64,000 nucleotides of DNA from Thermoanaerobaculia bacterium (GCA_034664845.1 JAXDGW010000027.1:65687-129686), one strand, 5' to 3'. Shown: positions 37,976 to 56,670, counted from the stretch's first letter. Notes: a model not told the origin generated them from the sequence alone. Translations and numbers: made by a program.

Positions 37976-38384
37976 CTAAGCCGACCAGTCTTCGATCGAA
38001 AGGCTTGGGATACGACCCATATGATCCATGTTGGCCGTAACGAGGATGGCGTCATACACGATGGCGTGAGCTGCGATCGCCACGTCGAAATCTTCGATGC
38101 GCTGTCCCGTTCGCTCCAGAGCCGCCTTGATTTCACCAAACTTCTCGCTGACCGCGTCGGACCAATCGCAGCGCTTGAGCTCTGCGCGGAGAAGCTCAAA
38201 ACGACGGCGCAGATTTTTCGCGTCGCCTTGATTTCGGCAACCGTTCAATGCCGTAAGCGATCTCCGCCAGAACGGGCTGCGGAATACCAACCGCATCGCG
38301 CGATATCTGCGCAAGCCGGTCCACAACTCGCAAGTCTCCGCGCATCAGGGCGGAGGCGGCATTGGTGTCGAGCACGTACTTCAC
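37976..38384 (-). pseudogene. vapC: PIN-domain toxin, frameshifted (two overlapping ORFs)
   Basis: The N-terminal ORF MKYVLDTNAASALMRG... and the C-terminal ORF ...DFDVAIAAHAIVYDAILVTANMDHMGRIPSL lie in different frames. Removing one A from the A5 run in cgcgaaaaatctg restores a single ~135-aa VapC. Confidence 0.7.
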
Positions 38385-38629
38385 AGCTTCGGCGGTACCT
38401 TTGATCGCCGTTGCCTGCGGATCGCGGCGAGCATGAGTCCCGCGTCTTCAAACGTCCCGCGGTCCACAGCCCGCAACTTTTCGAAGAAGCCGGCAGACCA
38501 CTCCGATTGCCGTTCAACTTCTCGTTCAAGCGCTCGCAGAATCAGTCGGGTTCGACTGATGCGCAATGCCTGAGCACGTTGGTCAACGGCCTTCAGCAGC
38601 TCGATCGGGATGTGAACACTGACACGCAT
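38381..38629 (-). CDS. vapB: Ribbon-helix-helix (CopG-like) antitoxin
   Basis: MRVSVHIPIELLKAVDQRAQALRISRTRLILRALEREVE RHH fold. 4-bp ATGA overlap with vapC. Confidence 0.65.
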   Translation of the reverse strand: MRVSVHIPIELLKAVDQRAQALRISRTRLILRALEREVERQSEWSAGFFEKLRAVDRGTFEDAGLMLAAIRRQRRSKVPPKL

Positions 38630-40087: not shown

Positions 40088-41443
40088 GTGATGCAGCGAG
40101 CGGCGCTGCTCCTCGGAAGAAAGGCTGACCTCTCTTCGCTCGACGCGCTCTGCTCCGGGGAACCGGAGATGGAGATTCACGCCCTGGAATGGGACCGCGT
40201 TCCGCTGGAGTCGCTGGCGGCACGGCCGGAGCTGATGATCGTTGCGGTGGGCGCTGCCGGCGTGCTCGAGAGCGCAGCCTTTTTCGCGCATCTGGCCTCA
40301 CGGCGCGTCCGCCAGGTCGTGCTGGCGCTGGCTCGCGCGGACGATCGGGAGACGCTGGCCGTGGCGATCGCTCATGCGGACGACTTCGCGCTCTGGCCGG
40401 CGGATCCAGTCGAGATCGGACTCCGCATCGCGCGGCTGATGTCGGTCGCCGATCCCACTCCGCGGGAGATCGGCGGCCGGCTCGCGGAATCGGTCGCGCT
40501 GGCCCAGCTCGTCGGAAGCGATCCCCGGTTCCTTGAGGCCATCCGCCCCATTCCGCTTTTTGCGCGCAGCGAAATGCCGGTGCTGATCATCGGCGAGACC
40601 GGTTCGGGAAAGGAGCTGTGCGCCCGCGCGCTGCACTTCCTCAGTCCGCGGCGCGATGAGCCCTTCATCGCCGCCGACTGCAGTGCCATCCCCGATCATC
40701 TCTTCGAGAATGAGATGTTCGGACACTCGCGGGGTGCGTATACGGATGCACATCTCGATCAGAAGGGTCTGGCCGCATTGGCTCGCAAGGGGACGCTGTT
40801 CCTCGACGAGATCGACGCGCTGTCACCGGCGGCGCAGGGAAAGCTGCTTCGATTTCTGCAGGAGAAGACGTACAGACCGCTCGGCAGCGAGAAGTTCCTC
40901 CCCGCCCAGGCGACGATCCTCGCCGCAACGAACTGCGATCTCGATGTTGAAGTGCGCGAGAAACGCTTTCGCTCGGACCTCTACTACCGGCTGAACGTAT
41001 TGCAGCTCCGCCTTCCGCCATTGCGCGAACGGCGCCACGACATCCCGCTGCTGGCCCGGCATTTCCTGGCCGCGGCCTCGGCGAAAATGAAAGTCGACCG
41101 AACGTTCTCCCCGCAGGCGCTCCGCAAGCTGAGCGCGTACGAATGGCCGGGTAACGTGCGCGAGCTCTGCAACCTCGTGCAGCGCGCGGCGGTGATTGCC
41201 GAGGGAGGCGTGGTGCTGCCGTGTCACATCGAGATTGCAGGAGCGTCGGACCAATGCGCCTCCGGCACCTTCCGCGCGGGCCGTACGCAGGCCATTCAGA
41301 TGTTCGAGCGCGAGTACGTCCGCGACATGCTGACCCGCCACTCCGGAAACATCACAAGAGCCGCGCGTGAGGCGGGACAGGAACGGCGGGCATTTGGGAG
41401 GCTGGTGAAGAAGTACCGGTTGACCGGCGCATTCAGTGGCTGA
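40088..41443 (+). CDS. Sigma-54-dependent transcriptional activator (NtrC-family EBP) with degenerate receiver-like N-domain
   Basis: Walker A GETGSGKE. GAFTGA-variant FGHSRGAYTDA. Walker B LFLDEID. C-terminal HTH. Lies ~1.7 kb upstream of the contractile-system locus. Confidence 0.75.
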   Translation: MMQRAALLLGRKADLSSLDALCSGEPEMEIHALEWDRVPLESLAARPELMIVAVGAAGVLESAAFFAHLASRRVRQVVLALARADDRETLAVAIAHADDFALWPADPVEIGLRIARLMSVADPTPREIGGRLAESVALAQLVGSDPRFLEAIRPIPLFARSEMPVLIIGETGSGKELCARALHFLSPRRDEPFIAADCSAIPDHLFENEMFGHSRGAYTDAHLDQKGLAALARKGTLFLDEIDALSPAAQGKLLRFLQEKTYRPLGSEKFLPAQATILAATNCDLDVEVREKRFRSDLYYRLNVLQLRLPPLRERRHDIPLLARHFLAAASAKMKVDRTFSPQALRKLSAYEWPGNVRELCNLVQRAAVIAEGGVVLPCHIEIAGASDQCASGTFRAGRTQAIQMFEREYVRDMLTRHSGNITRAAREAGQERRAFGRLVKKYRLTGAFSG

Positions 41444-41511
41444 CGAAAGGCTTAGGAGGGAGTGCAATGGACCGCAGTTTCCGTGACACGCTGACGCGAC
41501 ATCCGGCGGTC

Positions 41512-42927
41512 CTAACGGCGAACCACTTTAGCCGGCGCACCCTTCTGCACGTCCGCCTTCGCCTCTAATCCATTTAGAAGATCCTGGATCTCCGTCGAGA
41601 TGTCGAGGAAGGTACCGTACTTAACATCGGCGCTGATTCCGACGCTCTTAGGCTTCAATTTCGCAATTTCTTCAGCGGTAGTAGGCGTGAATTTCAAGCC
41701 ACCAACCGACTTCGAGGCTTCCCACTTGCTCTCGAACGACTGGAACTCTTTGATCCTCACCTTGCACGTCCATGGCGATTGTTTTCCGTCGAGGTTCTTC
41801 GTGAAGCTCATTTCCAATCCGAAATTGTCTTCTCCGCCCCGCAACGGAAACGCGACGGCAAGAGCCTCCTTAACATCTTCGAAGTCATGTCTCAGCAGCG
41901 CACGCCCGATTGCGCCTGCTCTGAGCAAGCCCTTGATACTCCGGGTGACCGCAGCCGGGTCGGCATCGGCATCTTCCATTTCGGCCTTGATCGCCATCGT
42001 TTTCTCGTGCAATGTGCCGTCGGTTACGCGGCGCGACAGGCGGAGATCGAACGACGACTTGCCAACCTTGGTTTTCACCGACGTGGCCGTTTCGGTAAAA
42101 CCAACCGTATTCGTTCTGCCAACATCTTTGAGACCGGCAAGCGTTTCGACGGCTATCTCGTCGTCCTTCTTATCGGTCATCCCCACACCAAGCCCAATCG
42201 CTGCCTCAAAGCCGACGGAGGGATCATTCGCGAGCCTGTTCTTATAGGTTTCCCACAGAGAGGGAGCCCAGAGAATCAGTGGAGCCAGCGACGGGTTGTA
42301 TTCAATCATCCGCATGCGCAACGCCTTCGATGTGGCCAACGCCTGCAGCCAGGCATCGGCTCCAGCTTTCTTCAACGCATAGTGAATAATCTGCTTTGCG
42401 GCGTCGACAAAAGCGTCGGTGAGATCCTCGCCTTCGAGTTTTACATACTGAAACTCCTTTGCCTCGAACCAGAGGAACGCCGCCTTGATGTCGAGTTGCA
42501 GCTCGAGCTCTTTTTCTTTACCAGACTTTGACCACTCGCCCTCAATCTTGAAGGCAACTGTAAGACCCGGGATCTCCATCGGCACAGTGACTTCGAGCGC
42601 GACGCTGATGAAGATACCGAATCCGCTCTCACTTTCGACGCTCTTCTTCTCTCCGGTCTCGTCCATCTCGGCCGCGAGCTCTTTGAGCGTGAGTTTGCGC
42701 GGAGGTGGTTTGTACTCCCCCAGATCCGATCTGATTGGACCCGGCTCTGGTGAGCTCCACACGTATCCATATTCGCCACCACTGTTCTTGCTTTTTGCAG
42801 CGATCGCTTGGTTTCCTACGCTGCGTTGCAACTGTGCGGACGGGCGCAGGCTCCCGATCTTCGCGTTTGGGCGTGTATCGAGGGCCGTTGGCTCTCTCTT
42901 TGGTATCGCGCTTCGCGAGTGGGGCAT
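41512..42927 (-). CDS. Hypothetical protein, low-GC, long disordered N-terminus (candidate contractile-system cargo)
   Basis: GC of this gene (~50-55%) is visibly below its neighbours. ~100 N-terminal residues are rich in P/S/G/K/R; the remainder is a globular domain with no recognised motif. Start ambiguous (ATG 42927 or GTG 43002). Confidence 0.4.
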   Translation of the reverse strand: MPHSRSAIPKREPTALDTRPNAKIGSLRPSAQLQRSVGNQAIAAKSKNSGGEYGYVWSSPEPGPIRSDLGEYKPPPRKLTLKELAAEMDETGEKKSVESESGFGIFISVALEVTVPMEIPGLTVAFKIEGEWSKSGKEKELELQLDIKAAFLWFEAKEFQYVKLEGEDLTDAFVDAAKQIIHYALKKAGADAWLQALATSKALRMRMIEYNPSLAPLILWAPSLWETYKNRLANDPSVGFEAAIGLGVGMTDKKDDEIAVETLAGLKDVGRTNTVGFTETATSVKTKVGKSSFDLRLSRRVTDGTLHEKTMAIKAEMEDADADPAAVTRSIKGLLRAGAIGRALLRHDFEDVKEALAVAFPLRGGEDNFGLEMSFTKNLDGKQSPWTCKVRIKEFQSFESKWEASKSVGGLKFTPTTAEEIAKLKPKSVGISADVKYGTFLDISTEIQDLLNGLEAKADVQKGAPAKVVRR

Positions 42928-43125
42928 GTTCGCAACGTACGCCCCACCACGGATTCGCGCAACGGGACAAACACCACTCTGATATGGGCGAAACCTGCCC
43001 ACCCCGTCACACTATCGGCCAATGCAGTCCATCGACGGTCAAGACCGGGTCATGAGTGACCCACCGCGCCCCACAACCCAGGAAAGCTTTCTTTTCAAAT
43101 CAACAACTTACTCCACTCATCGCTA

Positions 43126-43140
43126 TGGCCCCTCCCTTGC
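43126..43140 (+). promoter_or_regulatory. Sigma-54-type -24/-12 promoter candidate (TGGCCC-N5-TTGC)
   Basis: TGGC at 43126-43129 and TTGC at 43137-43140 give exact GG-N10-GC spacing, ~15-50 nt upstream of the first gene of the tail-like locus. Confidence 0.45.
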
Positions 43141-43155
43141 GAACCGCCCCTCCCA

Positions 43156-43428
43156 ATGGTCCGCCCTGCCCACGCGGTCATCAAAGAGATCATGCGTTAC
43201 TTTGTCGAACATCCTCATGCGCTCGATTCGCTGGAGGGCGTGGCCCGGTGGCGGCTGCTGCAGCGGCGCATCGATGACACGGTCTCCGAGACGGAGAGCG
43301 CATTGGAGTGGCTCGTCGCGAACGGATACCTCCAGCGCGTCGACGTCACGTTCGGACCTTCTCTCTTCCGTATCGCCGCGGAGAACCCGAATGGCGTCGA
43401 GCGCCTGCTGGCCGAGGAGACGTCGTGA
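43156..43428 (+). CDS. Small hypothetical protein, first gene of contractile-system locus
   Basis: ORF with GTGA overlap into the DUF4255 gene. An alternative start at MRYFVEH (43192) is preceded by AAAGAG. Confidence 0.4.
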   Translation: MVRPAHAVIKEIMRYFVEHPHALDSLEGVARWRLLQRRIDDTVSETESALEWLVANGYLQRVDVTFGPSLFRIAAENPNGVERLLAEETS

Positions 43429-44021
43429 GCGACTTCACCGCGGTGCGCGCGGTGAGCCAGACGCTGAAGGAGCTACTGGAGCGGGAGATCACCAACAGCG
43501 ACAACACGGAAGTATTCGGCGTTCCGATCTTCCTCAACTCGCCGCGCTTCCTCCGGGAAGAGAAGAACACATCGGGGATCTCGCTCTGGCTCTACATGAT
43601 GCGTCGCGAGCCCGACACGCTGAACCGGCCGCAGGAACGGCCGGCATCCTCGCAAATCAAGCGCCGTCCACTGCCGCTCACACTCCACTATCTGATCTGC
43701 GCCCTGCACAAGGAGCCGCTCGACGAGCAGAAGCTCCTCGGCAAGGTCGCTCAGGTCTTTCACGATCACGCCATCATCGAGCCGGGCGACCTGCGCGAAA
43801 CCCTGGCCGGCGAGGATCTGCAACTTCGGCTGGTGCTCGACGCCCCGACGCTCGAGGAGCTCTCGCGCGTCTGGGACGCGCTGAATGAGCCGTATCAGCT
43901 CTCGCTCGCCTACACGGTGCAGGTCGTCTCCATCGATTCCGATCGCGACGCCGCGGTTCGTCCGCCGGTGTTGGTGTCGACGCAGCAGCCATCGCAGATC
44001 GCCGGCGGAGGCGCGGCGTGA
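43425..44021 (+). CDS. DUF4255 (Pvc16/Afp16-like) tail-terminator/cap protein of extracellular contractile injection systems
   Basis: ISLWLYMMRREPDTLNRP matches the DUF4255 [IV]NLFLY..E....RN signature; ~200 aa; GTG start overlaps the upstream stop. Confidence 0.65.
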   Translation: MSDFTAVRAVSQTLKELLEREITNSDNTEVFGVPIFLNSPRFLREEKNTSGISLWLYMMRREPDTLNRPQERPASSQIKRRPLPLTLHYLICALHKEPLDEQKLLGKVAQVFHDHAIIEPGDLRETLAGEDLQLRLVLDAPTLEELSRVWDALNEPYQLSLAYTVQVVSIDSDRDAAVRPPVLVSTQQPSQIAGGGAA

Positions 44022-45076
44022 CGGTGTTCACTACTGACGAGCGTGTGTACAACGTCGTCCTCGACGGCGCGATCCGGCGCCGCGCGCTGATCATCGCGCG
44101 GGTCGTGGACGCGGTGGTGACAAGCGCCGGCGCGCCTGTACCGCCGCGAAACCCGCTCAGCGCTCATGTGGACCGGCGCGGCGCGACGGTGCGCATCGGC
44201 AGCGGAGGGACACTGGCCGTGTCCGGACGAACCGAGCAGCTCCTCCCCGATCCATCCTCGACGACTCCGATCACGTTCACGATCTCGATTCGAGCGCACG
44301 GCTACCGGACGCACGTCGAGGCGGTCATCATCGCTCCCACCGCCACGCTCCCCATCGACCTCGGCACGATCGCGCTTCAGCCCTTGCCGGTGCGGTTGGA
44401 GGGTCGGGTGACACACGAGAGGGATCGGACAGCGATCGCGGGGGCGTCGATCGTGGCGCGGAAGTCCGACAAGATCGTGCTTCTCCGCACGCCCCTTCAG
44501 CGCGACTACCTCAGAGGCACGACGGTGACTCCCCGAACGCTCACCCCCAGCGGAACACCCACGACGCTCGCCGCACCGGCCGCGCGGGGCTCGGGAATGG
44601 TGACGCTCGACGACGCAAGTTCATTCGCACCGGGCAATGTGGTTCGGTTCGCGGCCCGCGAATACGGCGTCATCGCCACGATCGCTGTCAATGACGTGAC
44701 GCTGATCGATCCGCTGCAGCACAGTCACGCCGCCGGAACATCGGTCTCGCACATCACCGCCAGCGCCGGAACCGCGATGACAACGCGGCGCGACGTGATC
44801 GCCGGCGACGCGCTTCTGCCGGTCGATACGGCAACCGATGCCACGGCGATCGAGATCGGCGGCGAGTACCACGACACCGGATTGCTTTCCGATTCGGACG
44901 GCTACTTCGCCGTCGACGGCATCGGCGGAGAGCGGGCGATCACGCTCATCACCATTGCGTCAGACCCGGCGCTCTCCGATGTCGAGACCACCGTAATCGT
45001 TGACTACAGCAAGCCAGAGAACAGCGTCAGCATGAGAGTCAAAAAGATACCGCCACCGCCGCTGCAATCGATGTAG
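44018..45076 (+). CDS. Hypothetical protein (possible carboxypeptidase-regulatory-like beta-sandwich), contractile-system accessory
   Basis: ORF with GTGA overlap to DUF4255 gene, consistent with translational coupling. No confident motif. Confidence 0.4.
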   Translation: MTVFTTDERVYNVVLDGAIRRRALIIARVVDAVVTSAGAPVPPRNPLSAHVDRRGATVRIGSGGTLAVSGRTEQLLPDPSSTTPITFTISIRAHGYRTHVEAVIIAPTATLPIDLGTIALQPLPVRLEGRVTHERDRTAIAGASIVARKSDKIVLLRTPLQRDYLRGTTVTPRTLTPSGTPTTLAAPAARGSGMVTLDDASSFAPGNVVRFAAREYGVIATIAVNDVTLIDPLQHSHAAGTSVSHITASAGTAMTTRRDVIAGDALLPVDTATDATAIEIGGEYHDTGLLSDSDGYFAVDGIGGERAITLITIASDPALSDVETTVIVDYSKPENSVSMRVKKIPPPPLQSM

Positions 45077-45098
45077 CGCGGAGAAAAGGAGACCAGTC

Positions 45099-47132
45099 GT
45101 GCCTCAATACCTAGCACCAGGCGTCTATGTCGAGGAAGTCGATACCGGGATCAAGACGATCGAAGGGGTAAGCACCAGCGTGGCGGGAATGGTGGGGGTA
45201 ACCCGCCGCGGCCCGACGAAGGGCCTGCCCCAGCTGGTGACGAGCTTCGCAGAATTCGAACGCCTGTACGGCGGCTACTTCGATTTCGGTACCGCGTTCG
45301 CCGGGCAACAGTTCCTCCCGCACGCCGTGAATGGGTTCTTCACGAATGGAGGGCGGCAGCTGTACGTGATGAGGGTGGCCAACGGTAATGCGTCAACCGG
45401 TGCTACGGCCGCGCAGAAACAGACAGAGGGCGGAATCGTGACACGGTTAAAGGCGAACGCCTCAGACGGTACAACTATGTTCACGCCACTGAGCACGCGT
45501 GGAATCCAGTTCCATACGAAAGTCCAACTTCGAATGATCAAGGACGGAGTCACCTACGATAGTGGAGCCGTCAGCGTCAGCGCAGTCGACCGCACGAGTG
45601 GTGAAGTGACGGTGGCGTCCGCCCTGAGCATCCCGACGGGTGGACCGACTGAATGGGACGCCCGATACACAATCGTCTACACAGATCGCAAGTCGACCGG
45701 CAGTCTCACGAATCCCACAGATACCCGTGAAAACAGCATCCTCATCGACGCCAGGGATCCGGGCTCATGGGGACGGGACATCACAGTCGAAGTCGCCGAT
45801 CAGGCGGCCGGCAAGGCGGAGTTGCTCAGCAACGATTCGTCGACCATTACCCTGAAATCGCCGTCTGTGGCCTTCTACCCCAACGCCTGGGTGGAGGTGG
45901 ATCAGGGCAAAACCAAGACGTTCATGAAGGTCACGGCCGTGAACGGTGCTGTGATCACCGTCAGCCCCGCTCCCGGCACGACCGACTTCAGTCCTGAGAC
46001 CCCGTTCTCGGTCACAACGCTGACAGTATGGGAGATGAATCTCACCGTAAGTCTTGGGAGCGCTTCGGAGCAGTACTCGGGCCTGACCCTCGAAAACGTT
46101 CCTGGAAAGTACATCGTCGATCGACTCAGCAACTCGTCTCTCGTTGCTGTCTCCCTGGCGTCTCTCACAGCCAGCGACACCGACCCTCTGCACTTCCCGG
46201 CAGCCGAGGACGGACGCACCATCCATCTAGACACCGGGGGTGCCGACGGCACCTCGTCCCCGGCCGTCACCGACTACGTCGGCTCCGGCGATCCCGGAAA
46301 CCGTACCGGCATCAAAGCCCTCGAAGACATCGACCGCATCAGCATCATCGCAGCGCCGGGGAACATCGACGTACCGGTTCAGAACGCGTTGATCGAGCAG
46401 TGCGAGCGTCTCAAAGACCGCTTCGCAATCCTTGATCCGAAAGGAACCACAGTCAACGACGTCACCACGCAGCGCCAGCAGTTCGACACCAAATACGCGG
46501 CCATCTACTACCCCAACCTCGTCGTCTTCGATCCCGTCACTTCGAACAACATCGTCGTCCCGCCCAGCGGCCACATGGCCGGCATTTATGCGCGCGTCGA
46601 CATCGAGCGCGGTGTCCACAAGGCGCCCGCTAACGAGGTCGTGCGCGGCATCGTCGACTTTGCCGCCACCATCAACAAAGAGACGCAGGATCTGCTCAAC
46701 CCCAGTCCGACGAACATCAACGTCTTCCGCGATTTTCGCGGTGACGGACGCGGGCTGCGCATCTGGGGCGCCCGGGTGATCACCAGCGACACCTCGTGGA
46801 AGTACGTCAACGTGCGGCGGCTCTTCCTCTTCCTCGAGGAATCGATCGACGAAGGGACTCAGTGGGTGGTCTTCGAGCCGAACGATGCGCCGTTGTGGTC
46901 GCGCGTGACGCAGAGCATCAGCGCTTTTCTGACGCGCGTCTGGCGCGACGGCGCGCTGCAGGGCGCGACTGCCGAGGAGGCATTTTTCGTCAAGTGCGAC
47001 CGGACGACGATGACGCAGGACGACATCGACAACGGCAAGCTGATCGCCATCGTCGGCGTCGCTCCCGTCAAGCCCGCCGAGTTCGTGATCATCCGCATCA
47101 GTCAATGGACCGCCGGCGCCTCCGCGGCGTGA
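45099..47132 (+). CDS. Contractile tail sheath protein, paralog 1
   Basis: N-terminal MPQYLAPGVYVEEVDTG sheath signature. C-terminal conserved sheath core (RVITSDTSWKYVNVRRLF...). Confidence 0.85.
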   Translation: MPQYLAPGVYVEEVDTGIKTIEGVSTSVAGMVGVTRRGPTKGLPQLVTSFAEFERLYGGYFDFGTAFAGQQFLPHAVNGFFTNGGRQLYVMRVANGNASTGATAAQKQTEGGIVTRLKANASDGTTMFTPLSTRGIQFHTKVQLRMIKDGVTYDSGAVSVSAVDRTSGEVTVASALSIPTGGPTEWDARYTIVYTDRKSTGSLTNPTDTRENSILIDARDPGSWGRDITVEVADQAAGKAELLSNDSSTITLKSPSVAFYPNAWVEVDQGKTKTFMKVTAVNGAVITVSPAPGTTDFSPETPFSVTTLTVWEMNLTVSLGSASEQYSGLTLENVPGKYIVDRLSNSSLVAVSLASLTASDTDPLHFPAAEDGRTIHLDTGGADGTSSPAVTDYVGSGDPGNRTGIKALEDIDRISIIAAPGNIDVPVQNALIEQCERLKDRFAILDPKGTTVNDVTTQRQQFDTKYAAIYYPNLVVFDPVTSNNIVVPPSGHMAGIYARVDIERGVHKAPANEVVRGIVDFAATINKETQDLLNPSPTNINVFRDFRGDGRGLRIWGARVITSDTSWKYVNVRRLFLFLEESIDEGTQWVVFEPNDAPLWSRVTQSISAFLTRVWRDGALQGATAEEAFFVKCDRTTMTQDDIDNGKLIAIVGVAPVKPAEFVIIRISQWTAGASAA

Positions 47133-47147
47133 GAGAGGAGTTGAGCC

Positions 47148-47588
47148 ATGCCACAGACAGGACAACGCAACGATCCGTACCGCGCCTATAACTTCGAGGT
47201 CCAGATCGACAGCTCCACCGTCGCCGGATTCCGCGAGGTCAGCGGCCTCAGTTTCACCACCGATCCCGTCGAATACCGCGAGGGCACCGACATCCCATTG
47301 CACGTGCGGAAGCTGACCGGCCTTCGCAAGTTCGCGAACCTCATGTTCAAGCGCGGCTTCACCAAGAACGACGAGTTGTGGAAGTGGTACAAGAACACGC
47401 TCAACGGTATCGAAGACCGGCGCAACGGTGCCATCGTCCTGCACGACGAGCTGCACAACGAAGTGCTGCGGTGGAACTTCGAGTTCGCCTGGATCACCAA
47501 GTGGGAAGGTCCGACGATGAACGCGACGAGCAACGACGTCGCCATCGAGACCATGGAGCTGGCCGTCGAGCGCGTCGAGCTCCAGTAG
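47148..47588 (+). CDS. Tail tube protein (T4 gp19/Afp1-like), paralog 1
   Basis: DPYRAYNFEVQIDSSTVAGFREVSGL is characteristic of tube proteins; 146 aa. Confidence 0.85.
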   Translation: MPQTGQRNDPYRAYNFEVQIDSSTVAGFREVSGLSFTTDPVEYREGTDIPLHVRKLTGLRKFANLMFKRGFTKNDELWKWYKNTLNGIEDRRNGAIVLHDELHNEVLRWNFEFAWITKWEGPTMNATSNDVAIETMELAVERVELQ

Positions 47589-47601
47589 GGCGGAGAGACC
47601 G

Positions 47602-50148
47602 ATGCCGCTCTACACCGCACCGGGAGTCCGGTTCGAGCCCGCCGATACCGGCAGCCAGGGCATCGCCGCGCTCCGCACGGACGTGGCGGGGTTCGTCGGC
47701 GTTTGCGAGCGGGGCCCGCTCGACGCACCGCTGCGCGCAGGCTCGTGGGAGCAGTTCCGGACGGCCTTCGGCGGCCTCGTTTCCAACGCCATCCTTCCCT
47801 GGTCGGTGAAGGCATTCTTCGAGAACGGCGGGCGCACCTGCTGGATCGTCCGCGTCGCTGCACAAACAACTTCGACCACGACCTCGGGCACACAGCCGTC
47901 CGACCGGCAATCGTCGAAGGTGCTCGATGCCAGCGGCTTTGCGGCCGGCGCCGTAGCGACGCTCGCACAGTCCATCGCCACGACGACCGCGACGATCGCG
48001 CAGCCCGCCGGCCGGCAATCGTCCGTCGTTGCCAGCGCCGCCGGCTTCATCGCAGGCGCGGTGGCGATGCTGTCGCAGACGACGCAAACGACGAGCACCG
48101 GCGCAGCGCAGCCGGCAGACCGACGTTCATCCCTTGTCGCCGATGTGACCGGCTTCACCCCCGGCGCGCTCGTCGAAGTCACCCAGGCGGGAAAGACGAC
48201 GCACCTGCTCGTGTCGGCCGCCGACGCCGCGACGAACACGCTCGTTTGGGACACGCCGCTCGACGCGACCTACAACCTCGCCGCCACTCTGCATTTCCGG
48301 ACGACGTGGCGCGACGCGCGGCGCGTTCATCGCGTCGACGGACCCACGATCCACTGGACCGTTGCGCTCGATCAGCAGTTTGATCTCGCCCGCGCGATTG
48401 CCATCGAGACCGTAGCCCGGAGTGAGCGATTGATCGCCGGCGTCACCGGTGCGACGGTCGCCTGGACGCGCCCATACGGCGGCGAATACGACCCGGCGCA
48501 GCCGATCGATGTCTCCACCGGCGCATCCGCGGCGAGCGGCGTACTGCTCGACGCGACCGGCACGCCGACGCTGCGCGTCGATGCAGCTAGCCCGGGAGCA
48601 TGGGGAAATGCGGTCAGCGTCGTCGTCTCGCGCACGAGCCGTCAGGCCACGCGCAGTGCCGGCGTGCAGCCGTCGAATGGTGCATTCAGCGTCGTCGAAA
48701 GCGTCGCCGGCATTTCCGCCGGAAGCGTGCTCCAGATTTTCCAGCCGGGCTCACGCACATTCCATCGCGTCGTCTCCTCCGTCGATGCGGCGCGCAAGCG
48801 CATCTTCTGGCGCGAGCCGCTCGGGAACCTCGATCTGACGCAGCCGTTTTCTCTGGAGAGCGACGAGATCACGATCGCTGTTTATGAGCGCGCCAACCTT
48901 CGCGAAGTTCTCGACCGGCTGACGCTGGTGGCGGGCGACGATCAACACGATGCGCCGGCGGTCGTCAACGCCGCCTCACGCTACCTCCGCCTGACCGATC
49001 TCGCCTCGCCGGCGCCGCCTCCCCTGTCGCATCCGAACCCGCAATCCCCCGCGCTCGACAACGGCCGGCTTCTGCTTGCCGGCGGCCGCGACGGCATCGC
49101 CGCGCTCCGGGCGGACGACATCACAGGAACCTTCACCACCGATGACCGCGCCGGCCTGCGGACGCTCGAGCTGGTGGATGAGGTTTCCTACATCGCCATC
49201 CCCGACGTCCTCATCGAGCGCGTTCCCGCGCTGGAAGTTCTCCCCGATCCGCCGCCCCCGCCGCCCGATCCATGCCTGCTCGCGCCGCCGCCGCTCTCGC
49301 TCGTCGCCGCTCCTCCGCCTCCGGCGATCCGCGAGCAGAGCGCGCACTTCAACCTCGACGAGGTGCTGCGCGTGCAGAACGCGATGATCGATCACTGCGA
49401 GCGTTTGCGCGACCGGATGGCGCTGCTCGACCCGCCGAACTTCCGCGCAACCGAGCTGGCGGAGATCGATAGCTGGCGGCGACGCTTCGATACGAAATAC
49501 GCCGCGCTCTACTTTCCCTGGATCGTCGTCCTCGATCCGCAGAACAGCCGCGATCTCACGCGGGCCATCCCGCCGAGCGGACACGTCGCCGGCATCTGGG
49601 CGCGCACCGACCTCACCACCGGCGTACACAAGGCGCCAGCGAATGAAGAGCTTCGCTGGGCGCAGGACTCAACGATCGACGTGACCGAGGCGGTGCATGA
49701 GATCCTCAATCCGGCGGGCATCAACGCCATTCGTCTCCTGCCGGCCCGCGGACTGCGCGTCTACGGAGCGCGCACCGTGAGCAGCGATCCGTCGTGGCGC
49801 TACGTCAGCGTGCGGCGGCTGCTGATCATGATCGAAGAGGCGGTCGAGGAAGCGCTGCAGTGGGCGGTCTTCGAGCCTCACGACGCCGCGCTTCGGGAAA
49901 AGGTAGCGATGTCGATCTACTCGTTCCTGGAGCGGCTCTGGGAACGGGGAGCACTGGCCGGCGCGACCGCGGGGGAGGCGTTCTACATCCGCTGCAACGA
50001 GTCCAACAACCCTCCCGACGCGGTCGCAAACGGCCACCTCCTCGCCGAGGTCGGCGTCGCGCCGGTCATCCCGGCGGAGTTCATCGTCTTCCGCATCGGC
50101 CGCACCGAGGATGTGCTCGAGACGAGCGAGCCGGAAGGGGGCGCGTGA
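47602..50148 (+). CDS. Contractile tail sheath protein, paralog 2, with large insertion containing a triplicated ~39-aa repeat
   Basis: N-terminal MPLYTAPGVRFEPADTG. C-terminal core RTVSSDPSWRYVSVRRLL. Internal repeats TQPSDRQSSKVLDASGFAAGAVATLAQS x3. Confidence 0.85.
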   Translation: MPLYTAPGVRFEPADTGSQGIAALRTDVAGFVGVCERGPLDAPLRAGSWEQFRTAFGGLVSNAILPWSVKAFFENGGRTCWIVRVAAQTTSTTTSGTQPSDRQSSKVLDASGFAAGAVATLAQSIATTTATIAQPAGRQSSVVASAAGFIAGAVAMLSQTTQTTSTGAAQPADRRSSLVADVTGFTPGALVEVTQAGKTTHLLVSAADAATNTLVWDTPLDATYNLAATLHFRTTWRDARRVHRVDGPTIHWTVALDQQFDLARAIAIETVARSERLIAGVTGATVAWTRPYGGEYDPAQPIDVSTGASAASGVLLDATGTPTLRVDAASPGAWGNAVSVVVSRTSRQATRSAGVQPSNGAFSVVESVAGISAGSVLQIFQPGSRTFHRVVSSVDAARKRIFWREPLGNLDLTQPFSLESDEITIAVYERANLREVLDRLTLVAGDDQHDAPAVVNAASRYLRLTDLASPAPPPLSHPNPQSPALDNGRLLLAGGRDGIAALRADDITGTFTTDDRAGLRTLELVDEVSYIAIPDVLIERVPALEVLPDPPPPPPDPCLLAPPPLSLVAAPPPPAIREQSAHFNLDEVLRVQNAMIDHCERLRDRMALLDPPNFRATELAEIDSWRRRFDTKYAALYFPWIVVLDPQNSRDLTRAIPPSGHVAGIWARTDLTTGVHKAPANEELRWAQDSTIDVTEAVHEILNPAGINAIRLLPARGLRVYGARTVSSDPSWRYVSVRRLLIMIEEAVEEALQWAVFEPHDAALREKVAMSIYSFLERLWERGALAGATAGEAFYIRCNESNNPPDAVANGHLLAEVGVAPVIPAEFIVFRIGRTEDVLETSEPEGGA

Positions 50149-50675
50149 TGGCGATCGGAATCCCCGGGCTCCGTTTCGATCCCGTCCGCTCCTACAACTT
50201 CCTCATCACGCTCGTCGACTCGACGAGCGCACTCGGCACCCTCGCTTCCGCGGTACAGAACATCGTCCTCGGCGGCTTCACCGAGTGCAGCGGCCTGGAG
50301 ATGGAACTGGAGATGGAGTCGTACAACGAGGGAGGCAACAACGGGCGCGCGCTCATTTTTCCGACGCGCGTGAAGTGGTCGCACATCCGCCTCAAGCGCG
50401 GCGCGGCGTTAAGCATGGAGCTGTGGAAGTGGCACTACAGCTTCGTCGAAGGAAAAGGGAAGCGGCGCGACGGCATCATCGTGCTGCAGGACGACCTTCA
50501 TATCCCCGTCCAGCTCTGGGCCTTCTCGCGCGGTCTGCCGGTGAAGTGGACCGGCCCTTCGATGAACGCGTCGCAGAGTCAGGTGGCGATCGAGGAGCTG
50601 GAGATCGCGCACGAAGGGCTGCGAAGCCATACGCCTGGCTCGGTGATCGGCGGCGTGGTGGAGAGTCTTTTCTAA
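50148..50675 (+). CDS. Tail tube protein, paralog 2 (Afp5-like)
   Basis: RSYNFLITLVD...GGFTECSGL; ATGA overlap with sheath 2. Confidence 0.8.
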   Translation: MAIGIPGLRFDPVRSYNFLITLVDSTSALGTLASAVQNIVLGGFTECSGLEMELEMESYNEGGNNGRALIFPTRVKWSHIRLKRGAALSMELWKWHYSFVEGKGKRRDGIIVLQDDLHIPVQLWAFSRGLPVKWTGPSMNASQSQVAIEELEIAHEGLRSHTPGSVIGGVVESLF

Positions 50676-50684
50676 GGAGGAGCG

Positions 50685-50885
50685 ATGGACGTGCACGTCG
50701 GCGAAATGAACAGCACCGTGCGGATGACCGACGCACAGTCGATGCTCAGCCCCGAGGTCTTCGAGCGGATCGTGCGCGCGGTGATGCAGCGGATGCGCGA
50801 AGAGCGGTCGCACGAGGAGCGCGTGGAGAAGGAGCGGCGCATCCGGCCGCGTGCGTCCGCGGTCGAAGGGACTTCCTGGGAGTAG
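50685..50885 (+). CDS. Small conserved-position protein (Afp6-like slot)
   Basis: Strong AAGGAGGAG RBS; 66 aa. Confidence 0.45.
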   Translation: MDVHVGEMNSTVRMTDAQSMLSPEVFERIVRAVMQRMREERSHEERVEKERRIRPRASAVEGTSWE

Positions 50886-50888
50886 ACG

Positions 50889-51590
50889 ATGGCGATCGCG
50901 AAGGCAAAGTTTGAGCGACTGAACGGCAGGCTGGCTGCCGTCGGCGACGCGATCGAGGTCTCGTTCAATCCGAACGAGCTGACCTACAACAAGGGCGTGC
51001 AACTCTCTGAGATCGCCATCCCCGGTCTCGACTCTCCGATCCTCCAATTCGTTCGCGGCCAGGCGGAGACGCTCGCAGTCGACCTCTTCTTCGACAGCAC
51101 GGATGAAGGGGGGACAGGCGCCGGCGCCGTATCTGTCACGACCCACACCGACCAGTTCTACAAACTGATCAAGATCGATCGGGCCACGCACGCACCACCT
51201 GTTTGCCGGTTTGTCTGGGGAAAAGGGCTGCCCTCCTCGAACATCATCGGAGCGTCATCGACGCAGGCGCACGGCACCTTCCAATGCGTCGTGGAGAGCG
51301 TGCGGCAGAAGTTCAGCCTCTTCAGCGCCGAAGGCGTGCCGTTGCGGGCGACGCTCTCGCTGTCGCTGAAGGAATACAAAACGCTGGAGGATCAGGTCAC
51401 CGAGATCGGCAAAGAGTCGGCCGATCACACACACGCGCGGGTTGTGCAACGCGGCGACACAGTGACGAGCATCGCGGCCGAGGCCTATGACGATCCGGCG
51501 CCGTGGCGCGCCATCGCCCTCCACAACGACATCGACGATCCGCTCGATCTCGAAGTGGGGACGATTCTGGAGGTCCCGGCGCTCCGCTGA
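50889..51590 (+). CDS. Tube-like tail protein with C-terminal LysM domain (Afp7/gpX-like)
   Basis: C-terminal LysM (VQRGDTVTSIAAEAYDDPAPWRAIALHNDIDDPLDLEVGTILEVP). Confidence 0.65.
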   Translation: MAIAKAKFERLNGRLAAVGDAIEVSFNPNELTYNKGVQLSEIAIPGLDSPILQFVRGQAETLAVDLFFDSTDEGGTGAGAVSVTTHTDQFYKLIKIDRATHAPPVCRFVWGKGLPSSNIIGASSTQAHGTFQCVVESVRQKFSLFSAEGVPLRATLSLSLKEYKTLEDQVTEIGKESADHTHARVVQRGDTVTSIAAEAYDDPAPWRAIALHNDIDDPLDLEVGTILEVPALR

Positions 51591-51598
51591 GGAAGACC

Positions 51599-52738
51599 AT
51601 GACCACCGCCGCCACTCCGATTTACGCCGATAAGAGGACGTTCTACGCGCCGGAGTTTCGGGTGACCGTCGGAAAGGATGTACCGCAACGGCCCATCTTC
51701 GACATCATCGACGTCACCTTCCACGACAAGATCAACACCATCGACTGGTTCGAGATCACGCTGAGCAACTGGGATTCGCAAGACCAGACATTCAAGTACG
51801 AGCCGCCACTCCTGCGATTCAAAGGACTCATCGAACCCGATTACCGCATCGACGTTCACATGGGTTATGCCGCCAAGGGCGAATTGCGCCTGATGAGCCG
51901 CGGAGTGATCACCGCCATCGAGCCGAACTATCCCGAAAGTGGCGCTCCCACACTCACAGTTCGAGGCCAGCATCTGCTTCATCGCGCCGAGCGCCGCCAA
52001 TACACGAAAACCTGGGAAAGAATGCGCGATAGCGAAGTTGCCAAAGAACTCGGCAACAAACCGCCCGACGTCAAGCAACCCAGCCTCGGCATTCCAATCG
52101 AGATCGATGAGAGCGCCAAGAGCCGCGAACCGAACGAAAAGATCGTTCTCGACAATCTGTCTCTCGTCAACTTCCTGCAGAAGCGCGCGAACCGCCGCGG
52201 CTATGTCTTCTATGTCGATCCGGCTGACGAAAAGAACGAGCTTCTCTATTTCGGCCCATCCGATCGGCCCAACCGCACCCAGTACGGCCTGAATTGGGGC
52301 GCCACGCTGATCAGCTTCCGCCCGACGTTCGCCGTAACGCAGCAAGCCGGACGTGTGACGGTGTGCGGAAAAGACCGGCTCACAGGCGAAAAAATCGCCG
52401 AGACCGCCGAGTTCCCAACCGACAACGACCTCAATCCCGAACTGCTGCCGCCGAAAGACAGTCACGACATCATCACGGATCCCCCGGCGCGATCGATCGC
52501 GGAGGCCAAGGCACGCGCGCATGAGGCCTTGAGCCAGTTCCGCCGCAACGTGATCAACGCCAGCGGATCCACCGTCGGTCTGCCCGATCTCCGCGCAGGA
52601 AGCTACGTCGTCATCGGTGGCCTCGGCAACGGCAGCCGCTTCAATGGCCGCTACTTCATCACCGGGACAACCCACACCATCGGATCGGGCGGCTACACCA
52701 CTTCGTTCGAGGCCCGCCGCGAGGACAAGGAGAGCTGA
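51599..52738 (+). CDS. Phage late-control gpD-like tail hub protein
   Basis: C-terminal GRYFITGTTHTIGSGGYTTSFEARRE is the hallmark of the P2 gpD family. Confidence 0.75.
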   Translation: MTTAATPIYADKRTFYAPEFRVTVGKDVPQRPIFDIIDVTFHDKINTIDWFEITLSNWDSQDQTFKYEPPLLRFKGLIEPDYRIDVHMGYAAKGELRLMSRGVITAIEPNYPESGAPTLTVRGQHLLHRAERRQYTKTWERMRDSEVAKELGNKPPDVKQPSLGIPIEIDESAKSREPNEKIVLDNLSLVNFLQKRANRRGYVFYVDPADEKNELLYFGPSDRPNRTQYGLNWGATLISFRPTFAVTQQAGRVTVCGKDRLTGEKIAETAEFPTDNDLNPELLPPKDSHDIITDPPARSIAEAKARAHEALSQFRRNVINASGSTVGLPDLRAGSYVVIGGLGNGSRFNGRYFITGTTHTIGSGGYTTSFEARREDKES

Positions 52739-52741
52739 CCG

Positions 52742-52987
52742 ATGCCCATCCCGCCCATCCTCCAACCCGGCGCCGTTGACGACGACGGCAACTGGATCAA
52801 TCCCGACGTCATGGCCAGGTACATGGACGACGCCCTTCCTCCTCCCGACGACCCGGAGGACTCGGGGAAAGCAGGCCGCCGGCAGTTTTTCATCGCCATC
52901 TCCAAAGGAGTCATCGGGTATCTGCGTGCGCATCCAGAAGCGTTCGTCGACGGCAGCGGCAACCAGGTGATCGGACAGATCAAGTGA
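52742..52987 (+). CDS. Small hypothetical protein between hub and spike
   Basis: 81-aa ORF, tightly packed between neighbours. Confidence 0.35.
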   Translation: MPIPPILQPGAVDDDGNWINPDVMARYMDDALPPPDDPEDSGKAGRRQFFIAISKGVIGYLRAHPEAFVDGSGNQVIGQIK

Positions 52988-53000
52988 TCGAGGAAAAACA

Positions 53001-53504
53001 ATGACGCGATTCACCGGAGTGATCGTCGGAACCGTTCAGGACGTCAACGACCCGAACGGGCTCGGGCGAATCCGTGTCGAGTTCCCCTGGATGGGCGGCG
53101 CCAGTCAGAGTCACTGGGCGCCGGTGGCCGCCGGAATGGCCGGCGGAGGCCGCGGCATGTTCTTCATGCCGGAGGTGGGCGACGAAGCGCTGGTCGCGTT
53201 CGATCATGGCGACGTCGATCAGGCCATCGTCCTCGGCTTTCTCTGGAACGGCCGCGATCTTCCGCCATCGAAAAACGTTCACGAGCGGGCGATCCGCTCC
53301 GTCAATGGCCACACCATCCGCTTCCTCGACTCCACTCCGGACGGCGGCAACCTCGGCGGAATCGTCATTGAAGACGGCCACCACAACCGCATCGTCCTCT
53401 CCAACGCAAAGATCACCATCCAGAGCACGGCCGTGCTCGACCTCCGCGCGCCGACGATCCTGATCAACGGCCGCGTCGTTACGCCGAACAGCAATCCGAT
53501 CTGA
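53001..53504 (+). CDS. gpV/gp5-like baseplate spike (OB-fold, VgrG spike domain)
   Basis: GVIVGTVQDVNDPNGLGRIRVEFPWM...PEVGDEALVAFDHGDVDQAIVLG typical of P2 gpV / VgrG spike. Confidence 0.8.
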   Translation: MTRFTGVIVGTVQDVNDPNGLGRIRVEFPWMGGASQSHWAPVAAGMAGGGRGMFFMPEVGDEALVAFDHGDVDQAIVLGFLWNGRDLPPSKNVHERAIRSVNGHTIRFLDSTPDGGNLGGIVIEDGHHNRIVLSNAKITIQSTAVLDLRAPTILINGRVVTPNSNPI

Positions 53505-53518
53505 CGAGAAACCGCGAA

Positions 53519-54280
53519 ATGAGCGCCATCGACATCCCGATCTCCGCCGAACTGCAGGCACTCATGAAAGTGCCGTCCGCGGCGGAGATCCGTCTGCCAA
53601 AGCCGGTCGATCTGAAGATCACGCTACCGACCGGCGCCGTGCTCAAAGCTCCCAATGACATCTCGAAGGGCTCACCGACGCCGGCATCGGCCAGCTTCGG
53701 TCTCCTCCTGCAACTCGGACCACTGCTCGGCAGCCTGGAGTGTCTTCTCAAGATTCTCAAGCTCCTCAAGCCGCTCATCGACGTCATCAAAGGCCTCCCC
53801 TTTCCACCGGTGAAAGCAATCAAAGATTTCGTGCTGGCGGCGAAGGACCTCATCCCCTGTTTCGGCGTCGTGCTGCCGACGAGTCTCATCCCCTTCATCA
53901 AAGACATCCTCTGCCTGATCCACTCGATGCTCCAGGGCATACACGACGGTCTGAAGAGCGTGGCTGACGTGATCGAGAGCGTCTCCTCGCAGATGGCCGC
54001 CGCTGACGAAAGCGGCAACGACGAGCTGAAGAAAGTGCTCGAGGCGGCGCAGGAAAATGCCATGACCTCGGCCTCGCAATTCACGGCCGCGCTCGCGCCC
54101 CTGAGCGCGCTCCTGACGATGGTCGAGCCGATCATGAGCCTGGCCGGGCTCCAGCCGTTCAAGCTGCCGGAGATGGGCGAGGCCGCCGACGCCGCCGCAT
54201 TGAAGCAGGTGGTCGGCGCGCTCGAAGGCGCCATCGACGCGCTTGGCAACGTCACGCAGGCGCTGGGAGGCTGCTCATGA
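53519..54280 (+). CDS. Helical Leu-rich hypothetical protein in the slot between spike and gp25 (tape-measure-like or spike-tip candidate)
   Basis: 253 aa, no PAAR motifs, predicted largely alpha-helical (LLLQLGPLLGSLECLLKILKLLKPLIDVIKGL). Confidence 0.4.
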   Translation: MSAIDIPISAELQALMKVPSAAEIRLPKPVDLKITLPTGAVLKAPNDISKGSPTPASASFGLLLQLGPLLGSLECLLKILKLLKPLIDVIKGLPFPPVKAIKDFVLAAKDLIPCFGVVLPTSLIPFIKDILCLIHSMLQGIHDGLKSVADVIESVSSQMAAADESGNDELKKVLEAAQENAMTSASQFTAALAPLSALLTMVEPIMSLAGLQPFKLPEMGEAADAAALKQVVGALEGAIDALGNVTQALGGCS

Positions 54281-54681
54281 GCGGCCGCGATTTCCTCGGC
54301 ACCGGCTGGAGCTTCCCGGTCCGGCCCGGCCCGCGCGGCGGCTTTGTCTGGTCGTCCGCCGAAACCGACATCGAGGAGTCGATCTGGATCATCCTCGGCA
54401 CCGCCAAAGGGGAGCGCCAGATGCTTCCGCAGTTCGGATGCGGGATTCACAACTACGTCTTCGCGCCGAACAGCCCCACCACCCGCACGAGCATCGCCGA
54501 GGACGTCCGCGGCGCGCTCACCACCTTCGAGCCGCGCATCGATCTGACCGGCGTGCGCGTCGACGCCGCACCTGACGATCCCGCGCGGCTGTTCATCCGC
54601 ATCGACTACCGCGTCAGGAAAACGAACGCCTTCCACAACCTCGTCTATCCCTTTTATCTCAGCGAAGGGAAAGAGAGCTGA
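54277..54681 (+). CDS. gp25/GPW-like baseplate wedge protein
   Basis: GTGWSFP...[25 protein letters not shown]...ALTTFEPRI matches GPW_gp25. Confidence 0.8.
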
Positions 54682-54683
54682 CC

Positions 54684-56666
54684 ATGCCTTTGCTGCCGCC
54701 GAATCTCGATGACCGAACCTACGCGCAACTCGTCGCCGAGGCGAAGACGCTCATCCCGAGGTACACGCCGGAGTGGACGGATCACAACGAGAGCGACCCC
54801 GGCATCACCCTGATCGAGCTCTTCGCCTGGCTCACGGAGATGCTCCTCTACCGCGTCAACCGTATCCCGGAGCGCAACTACATCGAGTTCCTGCGGCTAC
54901 TCGGCATTGAGCTGCTGCCTGCCGGTCCGGCGCGCGCAGAGCTGACGTTCACACTCGCGCGCAACGACGTCGACACCGTCTTCATCCCGAAAGGGACGCG
55001 CATCGCCGCTCCCGCGAATGGCGGCGAGGCACCGCTGCTCTTCGAGACCAATGAGACGCTCATCGCCCTCGGCGCGAAACTGAAAGCGATCCAGAGTTTC
55101 GACGGCTTCAGCTTCACGAACGTGACGACGCACAACGCCGCCGCGGGCCAGACCTTCTTCCCGTTCGGGCCGCGCGTGCGCAAGGACGCTGCCTTCTACC
55201 TCGGCTTCGAATCTCCGCTCCCCTTCACCAGCCAGCAGGTCAATCTGGTGTTCTTCGTTCACACCGACGAGCAGAAGGGAGCGACGCACTGCGACCTCGA
55301 TCTCGCCACGCTTCCGCCGCCCGCGGAAATCGCCTGGGAGTTCTGGAGCAACGGTTTCTGGCAGCAGTTCGAAGTCGACCGCGACGACACCCGCGCCTTC
55401 ACTCGCAGCGGTCATCTCTACTTCCCCGGTCCCGGCGCCGCTCTGCAAAGGCGCGCCCTCGGCGAGGTGAAAGTGCCGCTCTACTGGATTCGCGCGCGTC
55501 TCGTCGAGCCAACCTACGAACAGGCGCCCGAGCTCGAGGCGGTGATGACGAACACCATCTCCGCGACTGCCGCCGTCACCGTGCGCAACGAAGTCGTCGG
55601 CTCCACCACCGGCCAACCGGCGACGACGCTGCGGCTGGCCAACACGTCCATCGTCGAGCGCGACCGGCCGGAGCAGGCAACGAGCTCCGCGGGTGTGGTC
55701 ACCATCACGAGCGTCCGTCTCGAGATCGACGAAGGTCTCGGATTCGAGGTTTGGCAGGAGGTCGATGACTTCTACGCCTCGGGGCCCGACGACCAGCACT
55801 TCCGGCTCAACCGGAACACCGGCGAGATCGCATTCGGCGACGGCGACCACGGCCGCATTCCGCTCGCGAATCCGACCGGCGATCCGAATGTCATCGCACG
55901 CGAGTATCGCCAGGGCGGCGGGCGGCGGGGCAATGTCGCGCCGGGCCAGCTCAACGCGCTCCAGAGCTCGATCGACGGCGTCTCGGGTGTGACGAACCTC
56001 CGCGCCGCCCTCGGCGGCTCGGACGAGGAGACGATCGAAGACGCCAAGTTGCGCGCGCCGCAGGCGCTCAAGAGCAAAGGGCGGGCGGTGACCGCCGAGG
56101 ACTTCGAGTACCTCGCCATCAGCACGCCGGCGGTCCGGCTCCGCCGCGCCAAAGCTCTGCCGCTGTATCACCCGCGCTTCACCGGCGCGCCGATTCCCGG
56201 CACCGTCACGGTCGTCATCGTGCCGGACAGCGACGCTCCGAATCCCACGCCGAGCGAGGCCACGCGACGCATCGTCTGCCAGCACCTCGAGAAACATCGC
56301 CTTCTCACGTCCGAGGTTTTCATCATCGCGCCAACCTACCGGCTGGTGCGGATCGAAGCGGACGTCGCCGTCGCCACCAGCGCGGATCTGGCCGAGGTCA
56401 AGCACGGCGTCGAAGACGCGCTGACGCGCTACTTCCATCCGCTCACCGGCGGCAGCGACGGCACCGGCTGGCCGTTCGGCGGCGAGATCTTCTACTCCAG
56501 CGTGCTCCGCGTCCTGCTGCAAGTGCCGGGCGTGGAACGCATCCGCGACAACCAGTTGCTGATCTGGCTCGACGACGAGCGGCAGACCTTCTGCCGCGAT
56601 GTGCCGGTCAACACCGGCGAGCTGCTCTACACACAAGGACACGACATCCGCGTCTCGTACGCGTGA
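54684..56666 (+). CDS. Baseplate J-like protein (gp6/gpJ family)
   Basis: Conserved baseplate-J N-terminal region ([35 protein letters not shown]); 660 aa. Confidence 0.75.
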
Positions 56667-56670
56667 GGAG

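Follow-up and report, generated by a model that had tools for sequence, protein, structure and literature searches.

A low-GC gene beside a contractile injection system operon in a Thermoanaerobaculia bacterium encodes a candidate cargo protein that shares a leader box with the system's DUF4157 effector

Here we examine a minus-strand gene (positions 41512 to 42927) in a stretch of 64,000 nucleotides from a Thermoanaerobaculia bacterium (GCA_034664845.1 JAXDGW010000027.1:65687-129686), hereafter the window, together with the contractile injection system (CIS) operon that begins beside it. Judged from sequence, the 471-aa protein encoded by this gene is probably a cargo (effector) of the adjacent CIS, a reading to which we assign a probability of roughly 0.65. 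Its support comes from what we regard as four independent lines of evidence: a short N-terminal box that the protein shares with a DUF4157 effector of the same locus, the fusion of its C-terminal domain to DUF4157 in related proteins, the position of one relative directly behind a CIS-type ATPase gene, and base composition taken together with promoter-like boxes. As such, the gene is a new instance of an already known class, that of CIS effectors.

A preliminary description of this DNA had proposed that the gene is real, that it is visibly lower in GC than its surroundings, that it encodes no recognisable domain and that some 100 residues at its N-terminus are of low complexity, and each of these points holds up. 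The coding sequence runs from an ATG at 42927 to a stop codon at 41514-41512 (minus strand), the peptides that had been quoted are present in its translation, and the open reading frame (ORF) is uninterrupted through all 471 codons, with GC at third codon positions (GC3) exceeding that at first and second positions (GC1 and GC2). Checks of windowed GC and of GC3 gave a GC content of 0.555 versus 0.627 for the window (z = -2.4 among same-length sliding windows) and a GC3 of 0.65-0.66 versus a mean of 0.77 (standard deviation 0.07, 46 ORFs); within the window, GC falls below that of the gene only in a stretch at about 5.1-7.4 kb. Scans of the protein against Pfam and NCBIfam gave no match, nor did a comparison of its profile with PDB sequences. 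The HExxH motif is absent from the translation and the Pfam scan contained no match to PF13699 (DUF4157/eCIS_core), a zincin-like HExxHxxQ domain; because it has no HExxH peptidase domain, the protein is not a member of PF13699.

The first 87 residues (42667..42927, minus strand) constitute a hydrophilic and basic leader and linker rich in P, S, G, K and R. These five amino acids account for 48% of residues 1-105 versus 30% of the rest, mean Kyte-Doolittle hydropathy over the same two parts is -0.87 versus -0.20, and the first 50 residues carry a net charge of +7. This region is hypervariable across the family alignment, and its disorder-prone character is judged by composition and alignment only. 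A conserved G-x-Y-x-W-x-P box at residues ~51-62 is common to close relatives in the same alignment, and neither a signal peptide nor a transmembrane segment was detected in the sequence.

That the gene lies beside a tail locus, as had also been claimed, is borne out by a complete CIS structural operon on the plus strand (43156..64000, continuing past the end of the window), whose first ORF starts 229 bp away in divergent orientation. Beyond the window, on the same contig (locus L005), the operon proceeds through two more fibre-like genes, a tape-measure protein and an Afp15-like ATPase with a winged-helix domain (WHD) and an AAA domain, followed by genes for a 297-aa HExxH protein, itself a putative cargo (L005:17959-18852, window-equivalent 69722-70615), and a 787-aa PF13699 effector (L005:18881-21244, window-equivalent 70644-73007). 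The GC contents of these last two genes are 0.548 and 0.552, with GC3 values of 0.62 and 0.59, and the structural genes of the operon range from 0.60 to 0.69 in GC and from 0.74 to 0.88 in GC3. Low GC is common to the three putative cargo genes and is not a property of the structural genes, a pattern consistent with a stable core whose cargo can be exchanged.

A specific link between the 471-aa protein and the machine lies at its N-terminus, where residues 33-42, LQRSVGNQAI (42802..42831, minus strand), match residues 37-46, LQRTAGNQAV, of the 787-aa DUF4157 protein. In slightly wider context the two segments read AQLQRSVGNQAIAAK (residues 31-45 of the 471-aa protein) and LHLQRTAGNQAVLRK (residues 35-49 of the 787-aa protein), and the sequences near the start run ...SLRPSAQLQRSVGNQAIAAK and ...PAPLLHSTLHLQRTAGNQAVLRK, respectively. 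This box is the sole similarity between the two proteins (BLASTP E = 5e-4), and no second match to [LIVM]Q[RK]xxGN occurs in any of the window's six frames.

We sampled the box more widely by scanning metagenome contigs of the Joint Genome Institute (JGI) for DNA encoding LQR-[ST..]-[IVAT]-GNQAV, which gave at least 120 stretches and returned 80 loci, most of them on short contigs; because Val is fixed after GNQA in this pattern, the GNQAI variant of the 471-aa protein itself falls outside the sample. The 80 loci hold at least 91 instances, nearly all within long ORFs and with conservation extending into the flanks (consensus ...SILHLQRTIGNQAVQRLLQSGALQAK). The first in-frame ATG lies a median of 41 aa from the box (interquartile range 38-43), and at a distance of 30-65 aa in 66 of 71 instances. 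PF13699 is present in 41 of the 77 box-bearing ORFs scanned, and other box-bearing ORFs carry Tse3 muramidase, AvrRpt2-type Peptidase_C70, AHH nuclease, PT-HINT, ribonuclease, M35 or M15 domains. Among the ORFs that neighbour box-bearing genes in the longest loci, 14 of 102 are further PF13699 proteins and some carry Baseplate_J, Tail_P2_I or DUF4280. Searches by tblastn with the proteins of the locus studied here detected structural or fibre homologues in eight of the 80 loci (L022, L032, L047, L054, L063, L066, L074 and L087), and in a ninth (L077) a homologue of the 297-aa putative cargo protein only. In one of these, L032, a box-bearing DUF4157 gene stands just 5' of a small ORF, a Pvc16_N gene and a sheath gene, a site equivalent to that of the gene studied here. 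Furthermore, a leader profile constructed from 81 independent metagenomic instances, none of them with GNQAI, was compared with 1,454 segments from six-frame translation of the window and of related loci, where it retrieved the 787-aa DUF4157 protein (E = 6.8e-10) and the 471-aa protein (E = 3.7e-4), the next best match having an E-value of 0.28. In 11 of the 80 loci (L012, L014, L026, L039, L044, L051, L052, L063, L065, L069 and L085), two box-bearing genes are separated by no more than a few kb; as a separate observation, these pairs form arrays of DUF4157-type toxins whose leaders are near-identical.

Downstream of the leader, residues 88-471 (41515..42666, minus strand) form an effector-like domain belonging to a rare family. 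When 1.84 billion (1.84e9) representative proteins were searched exhaustively with phmmer, only 22 proteins with this domain were recovered (E-values 4e-42 to 3e-4; 22-48% identity), alignable over ~385 residues (the 471-aa protein with P0002-P0026) and sharing the conserved boxes VPGL, L-x-G-x-x-L-G-x-A-F-x-D-A-x-K-Q, FF-x-N-x-x-x-VGFE, G-x-EDV and YGTF-x-D-x-S. In a word-index homology search the 471-aa protein finds itself only and the 22-sequence alignment, used as the query, finds five proteins; an alignment-based search for related genome loci gave one match, in a Thermoanaerobaculia metagenome-assembled genome in which the gene lies at a contig edge. Nine of the 22 representatives carry PF13699 at the N-terminus, as do all three further members (P0024-26) identified in a later search. 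Polymorphic toxins of the Photorhabdus virulence cassette (PVC) type have a constant peptidase at the N-terminus and, behind it, a C-terminal toxin that varies (PMC3482391), and because its relatives place the same domain behind PF13699, the C-terminal domain of the 471-aa protein stands in the position of a toxin according to this logic.

The preliminary description had looked to the structure of residues ~110-470 for a toxin or enzyme fold. From a single sequence AlphaFold2 (AF2) was uninformative, with a predicted local distance difference test score (pLDDT) of 35, and with the 22-sequence alignment it produced a confident beta-rich model (pLDDT 83.7, predicted template-modelling score 0.79) comprising 12-13 long antiparallel beta-strands, two helical inserts and terminal helices. 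Foldseek searches of PDB and BFVD gave no genuine structural counterpart for this model and returned outer-membrane barrels only (such as FadL, OmpC and CymA), with E-values of about 3e-6, TM-scores of 0.2-0.3 and a root-mean-square deviation (rmsd) of about 20 A; in view of these TM-scores we rejected homology to such barrels and regard the likeness as one of local beta-meanders. That the domain acts on membranes is a tentative guess which we consider unlikely to prove correct.

The genomic surroundings of the relatives bear on whether homologues consistently lie away from contractile loci, which the preliminary description had named as refuting its proposal, and they divide the evidence: one relative stands in the standard 3' cargo position, and around most of the others, whose contigs are short, CIS genes are missing for 2-10 kb. 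The former, P0016 (GCA_947483555.1, CANKMW010000001.1; L131/L132, 267 kb contig), begins 90 nt after a WHD+AAA ATPase gene of the Afp15-like type, whose product is 46% identical over 269 residues to the ATPase of the locus studied here. On its 3' side follow a 164-aa ORF, here termed the partner ORF, and a second DUF4157 protein, of Het-C type, with an N-terminus resembling that of P0016. The same order of a 164-aa partner ORF and a DUF4157-Het-C protein is found 3' of P0026 (L133, 10.5 kb contig), with no ATPase upstream on its short contig and no CIS genes seen. Because the N-termini of P0016 and the Het-C protein are alike, a different type of leader is shared within that system. As an observation in its own right, the two adjacent DUF4157 toxins of L131/L132 (10001-15399) and those of L133 share the leader M-x-EHDQL...VQR[KR]ASAD...F-x-DA[VI]N-x-GV, which is unlike the LQRxxGNQA box; this would fit the idea of system-specific leaders common to the cargo of one system. 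CIS genes are absent around P0003 (L007, 13.9 kb contig), P0020 (L003, 5.9 kb), P0015 (L004, 3.9 kb) and P0006 (L010, 2.6 kb), all four of which have a partner ORF, and around P0005 (L009, 14 kb) and P0004 (L002, gene at the contig edge), which have none.

Counting that of the 471-aa protein itself, partner ORFs lie directly downstream of the relative in six of nine contexts (L007:4419-4898, L010:2079-2519, L004:3100-3585, L003:3359-3811, L131:11836-12330 and L133:3227-3721). They encode mutually homologous proteins of 146-164 aa in which we found no Pfam match and, by eye, no obvious transmembrane segment, and the partner is probably an immunity protein or a chaperone. A profile search of the window, L001 and L005 did not find the partner gene. 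The families of the C-terminal domain and of the candidate partner are both unannotated.

The 229-bp gap contains an inverted repeat whose arms are sigma-54-type -24/-12 boxes, TGGGGC-N5-TTGCGAAC facing the gene (42928..42946, minus strand) and, as its mirror, TGGCCC-N5-TTGCGAAC facing the CIS operon (43126..43144, plus strand), such that outward-facing boxes of the form TGG-N8-TTGCGAAC (TGGNNC-N5-TTGCGAAC) precede both transcription units. The whole 64 kb window holds only nine TGG-N8-TTGC sites. Convergent with the gene on its other side is a gene for a sigma-54-dependent transcriptional activator (40088..41443, plus strand; Sigma54_activat, AAA_lid_14 and HTH_8 domains), and the mirrored boxes together with this adjacent activator suggest that the gene and the CIS operon are co-regulated under sigma-54. 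No TGG-N8-TTGC box occurs in L005, and hence nothing points to the 3' cargo genes having a sigma-54 promoter of their own. A scan for sigma-70 promoters over 41300-43300 found nothing, and terminator-like matches in that interval were not above chance.

Several observations weigh against the cargo reading. The gene occupies the 5' flank of the operon on the opposite strand and not the 3' end, where eCIS toxins (those of extracellular CIS) are mostly encoded (PMC8213781). The 471-aa protein fits the 10-residue core of the leader only, the flanking IL-x-L before the box and RL-x-x-SG-x-LQAK after it being absent, and the full box is found in no other member of its C-terminal family. The contexts of P0003, P0004, P0005, P0015 and P0020 hold no CIS structural genes within 2-10 kb, and the modelled fold of the C-terminal domain offers no functional clue. 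In addition, the start codon is uncertain: the longest version of the ORF has 496 aa and begins at GTG 43002, and the JGI annotation of an identical metagenome contig (3300044722, Ga0467039_0000090) places the start at TTG 42831 (residue L33), giving 439 aa. Were the minus-strand sigma-54-type box a true promoter, transcription would begin near 42920, downstream of ATG 42927, which adds to this uncertainty; with such a start the LQRxxGNQA box would lie at the very N-terminus, unlike in its other instances.

The explanation that competes best with a cargo role is that of an orphan polymorphic-toxin cassette, acquired horizontally, situated beside the CIS by chance and not loaded, perhaps as a copy in decay, its peptidase and partner genes already lost. 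We consider this unlikely, although it would account for the low GC of the gene, its orientation opposite to the operon, the scarcity of CIS genes near most homologues, the conservation of the leader in its core only, and the absence from both the window and L005 of a partner gene present in six of nine contexts. It sits poorly with the match of the box, in a comparable location, to that in the DUF4157 effector of this locus; such a match within the locus, combined with the absence of the full box from the rest of the family, points to local recombination with, or selection for, the leader of this particular system. Nor does an ORF of 471 uninterrupted codons, whose GC3 exceeds GC1 and GC2, resemble a decaying copy, the mirrored promoter-like boxes suggest shared control, and the operon's own 3' cargo genes are equally low in GC. 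The preliminary description had named an unrelated, horizontally acquired gene as its alternative; acquisition itself is probable, but a gene unrelated to the machine is less favoured than a cargo gene.

A second and decidedly improbable explanation is that the protein is an accessory CIS factor that is not injected, with a role in assembly, anchoring, or release and lysis, or that the box marks a substrate of the DUF4157 peptidase and is not a loading signal. The position of the gene immediately upstream of the module containing the cap gene (Pvc16_N) would suit such a factor, as would the local likeness of the beta-rich model to membrane barrels, and the role of DUF4157 and of the sequences surrounding it is unsettled (PMC8213781, PMC11297309). 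However, a family of 22 representatives is far too rare for a core CIS component, its architecture is that of polymorphic toxins with a variable C-terminus and an immunity-like partner, and the protein has no signal peptide or transmembrane segment. Finally, a porin- or FadL-like beta-barrel of the host cell's outer membrane, unconnected with the CIS, is suggested by the top Foldseek matches, which are all such barrels, but is close to refuted by their low TM-scores and rmsd of about 20 A (a local likeness), by a hydrophilic, basic N-terminus with no signal peptide, by a C-terminus (...AKVVRR) that is not an aromatic beta-signal, and by relatives that bear a cytoplasmic-type DUF4157 N-terminus.

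If the 471-aa protein is indeed cargo, we propose that its basic, hydrophilic N-terminal ~50-90 residues, with the LQRxxGNQA[VI] box, would act as a loading sequence, which the Afp15-like WHD+AAA ATPase of the operon would recognise before unfolding the protein and threading it into the lumen of the tube; the 787-aa DUF4157 effector, with the same box, would be loaded likewise. The C-terminal ~385 residues would be the active part, a rare toxin-type module that in relatives is borne behind DUF4157 (PVC-metallopeptidase) and paired with a small downstream partner. The copy studied here has the leader but neither peptidase nor partner and was probably gained by recombination or horizontal transfer, and the mirrored sigma-54 promoters, under the neighbouring activator, may drive its transcription jointly with that of the machine.

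In AlgoCIS, loading requires a disordered N-terminal domain and an AAA+ ATPase, DUF4157 being dispensable, and the cargo pairs of one system are alike at the N-terminus (bioRxiv 10.64898/2026.05.27.728243; PMC8894135). Because DUF4157 is dispensable there, a cargo protein without it is plausible. AlgoCIS cargo and the 471-aa protein are both encoded with a CIS and both have a disorder-prone, hydrophilic N-terminus followed by a variable C-terminal domain, and at the level of the locus both systems have two cargo proteins with N-terminal similarity (here putative) and an Afp15-type AAA+ ATPase in the operon. Unlike AlgoCIS cargo, the 471-aa protein has no DUF4157, is encoded in the 5' flank on the opposite strand and has an unrelated C-terminal domain.

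PVC-type polymorphic toxins (PMC3482391, PMC8213781) have the architecture of peptidase followed by C-terminal domain that is seen in nine of the 22 relatives; the leader box also occurs on sampled PF13699 proteins, as described above (41 of 77 box-bearing ORFs), and immunity genes are often missing in such toxins (PMC3482391, PMC8213781), as is the partner at the locus studied here. They differ from the 471-aa protein in that it has no HExxH peptidase domain, and its C-terminal domain matches no Pfam family, the Tox/Ntox domains of PMC3482391 lying outside that comparison. Payloads of PVC and Afp (Pdp1, Pnf and Afp18; PMC11297309) carry N-terminal packaging signals of ~50 residues and, like the 471-aa protein, have a hydrophilic, positively charged and disorder-prone N-terminus and no DUF4157; their loading is thought to run via the Pvc15/Afp15 ATPase (PMC11297309). 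Their packaging signals reportedly have no conserved motif (PMC11297309), whereas the 471-aa protein has a discrete conserved box. Its first eight residues contain no aromatics, which are among the features that Danov et al. score.

Of more use than the gene itself may be the conserved leader box. Loading sequences of eCIS have been described as having no conserved motif (PMC11297309; bioRxiv 10.64898/2026.05.27.728243), and the literal motif strings of the box were not found in open-access literature text, with a prior description elsewhere being possible. A broader and rather doubtful extension is that Afp15-type ATPases throughout a large CIS clade recognise the LQRT[IVA]GNQAV box, which lies ~40 residues downstream of the start, as a sequence-specific signal for loading. 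In this extension the domain attached to the box here would represent a novel class of injected toxin, a beta-barrel that may act on membranes, with an immunity family of its own. Were the box such a signal, sequence alone would suffice to identify cargo, and loading could be engineered by means of the box; it offers a concrete handle both for cargo finding and for the design of loading tags in engineered injection systems. If the 471-aa protein is cargo, the prediction of cargo should also cover the 5' flank, the opposite strand and proteins without DUF4157. Two families also emerge from the analysis, one of toxin-type domains that had no annotation before and one of candidate immunity proteins or chaperones.

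The part of the CIS operon that lies within the window consists, on the plus strand throughout, of a 90-aa ORF (43156-43428), Pvc16_N (43425-44021), a 352-aa ORF (44018-45076), a first sheath gene (45099-47132) and gp19-type tube gene (47148-47588), a second sheath gene (47602-50148) and gp19-type tube gene (50148-50675), CIS_tube-LysM (50889-51590), a gpD-like gene (51599-52738), Phage_base_V (53001-53504), gp25 (54277-54681), Baseplate_J (54684-56666), Tail_P2_I+NHL (56671-58683), a 1,022-aa collagen-repeat fibre (58699-61767) and a 601-aa ORF (61764-63569). Its receptor-binding genes form an unusual pairing, in which NHL repeats on the Tail_P2_I protein are followed by a fibre with collagen triple-helix repeats.

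Two minor observations concern other parts of the window. Its lowest GC is found in the adjacent plus-strand ORFs 5993-6703 and 6708-7397 (GC 0.485 and 0.525, GC3 0.56 and 0.60, respectively), a pair that may represent another acquired segment. On the minus strand, an ORF for a ribbon-helix-helix (RHH)-type antitoxin (38381-38629) is followed by a VapC-like ORF, recognised by eye and seemingly split over two frames (38196-38384 and 37976-38326), which may be a frameshifted toxin gene or reflect a sequencing error.

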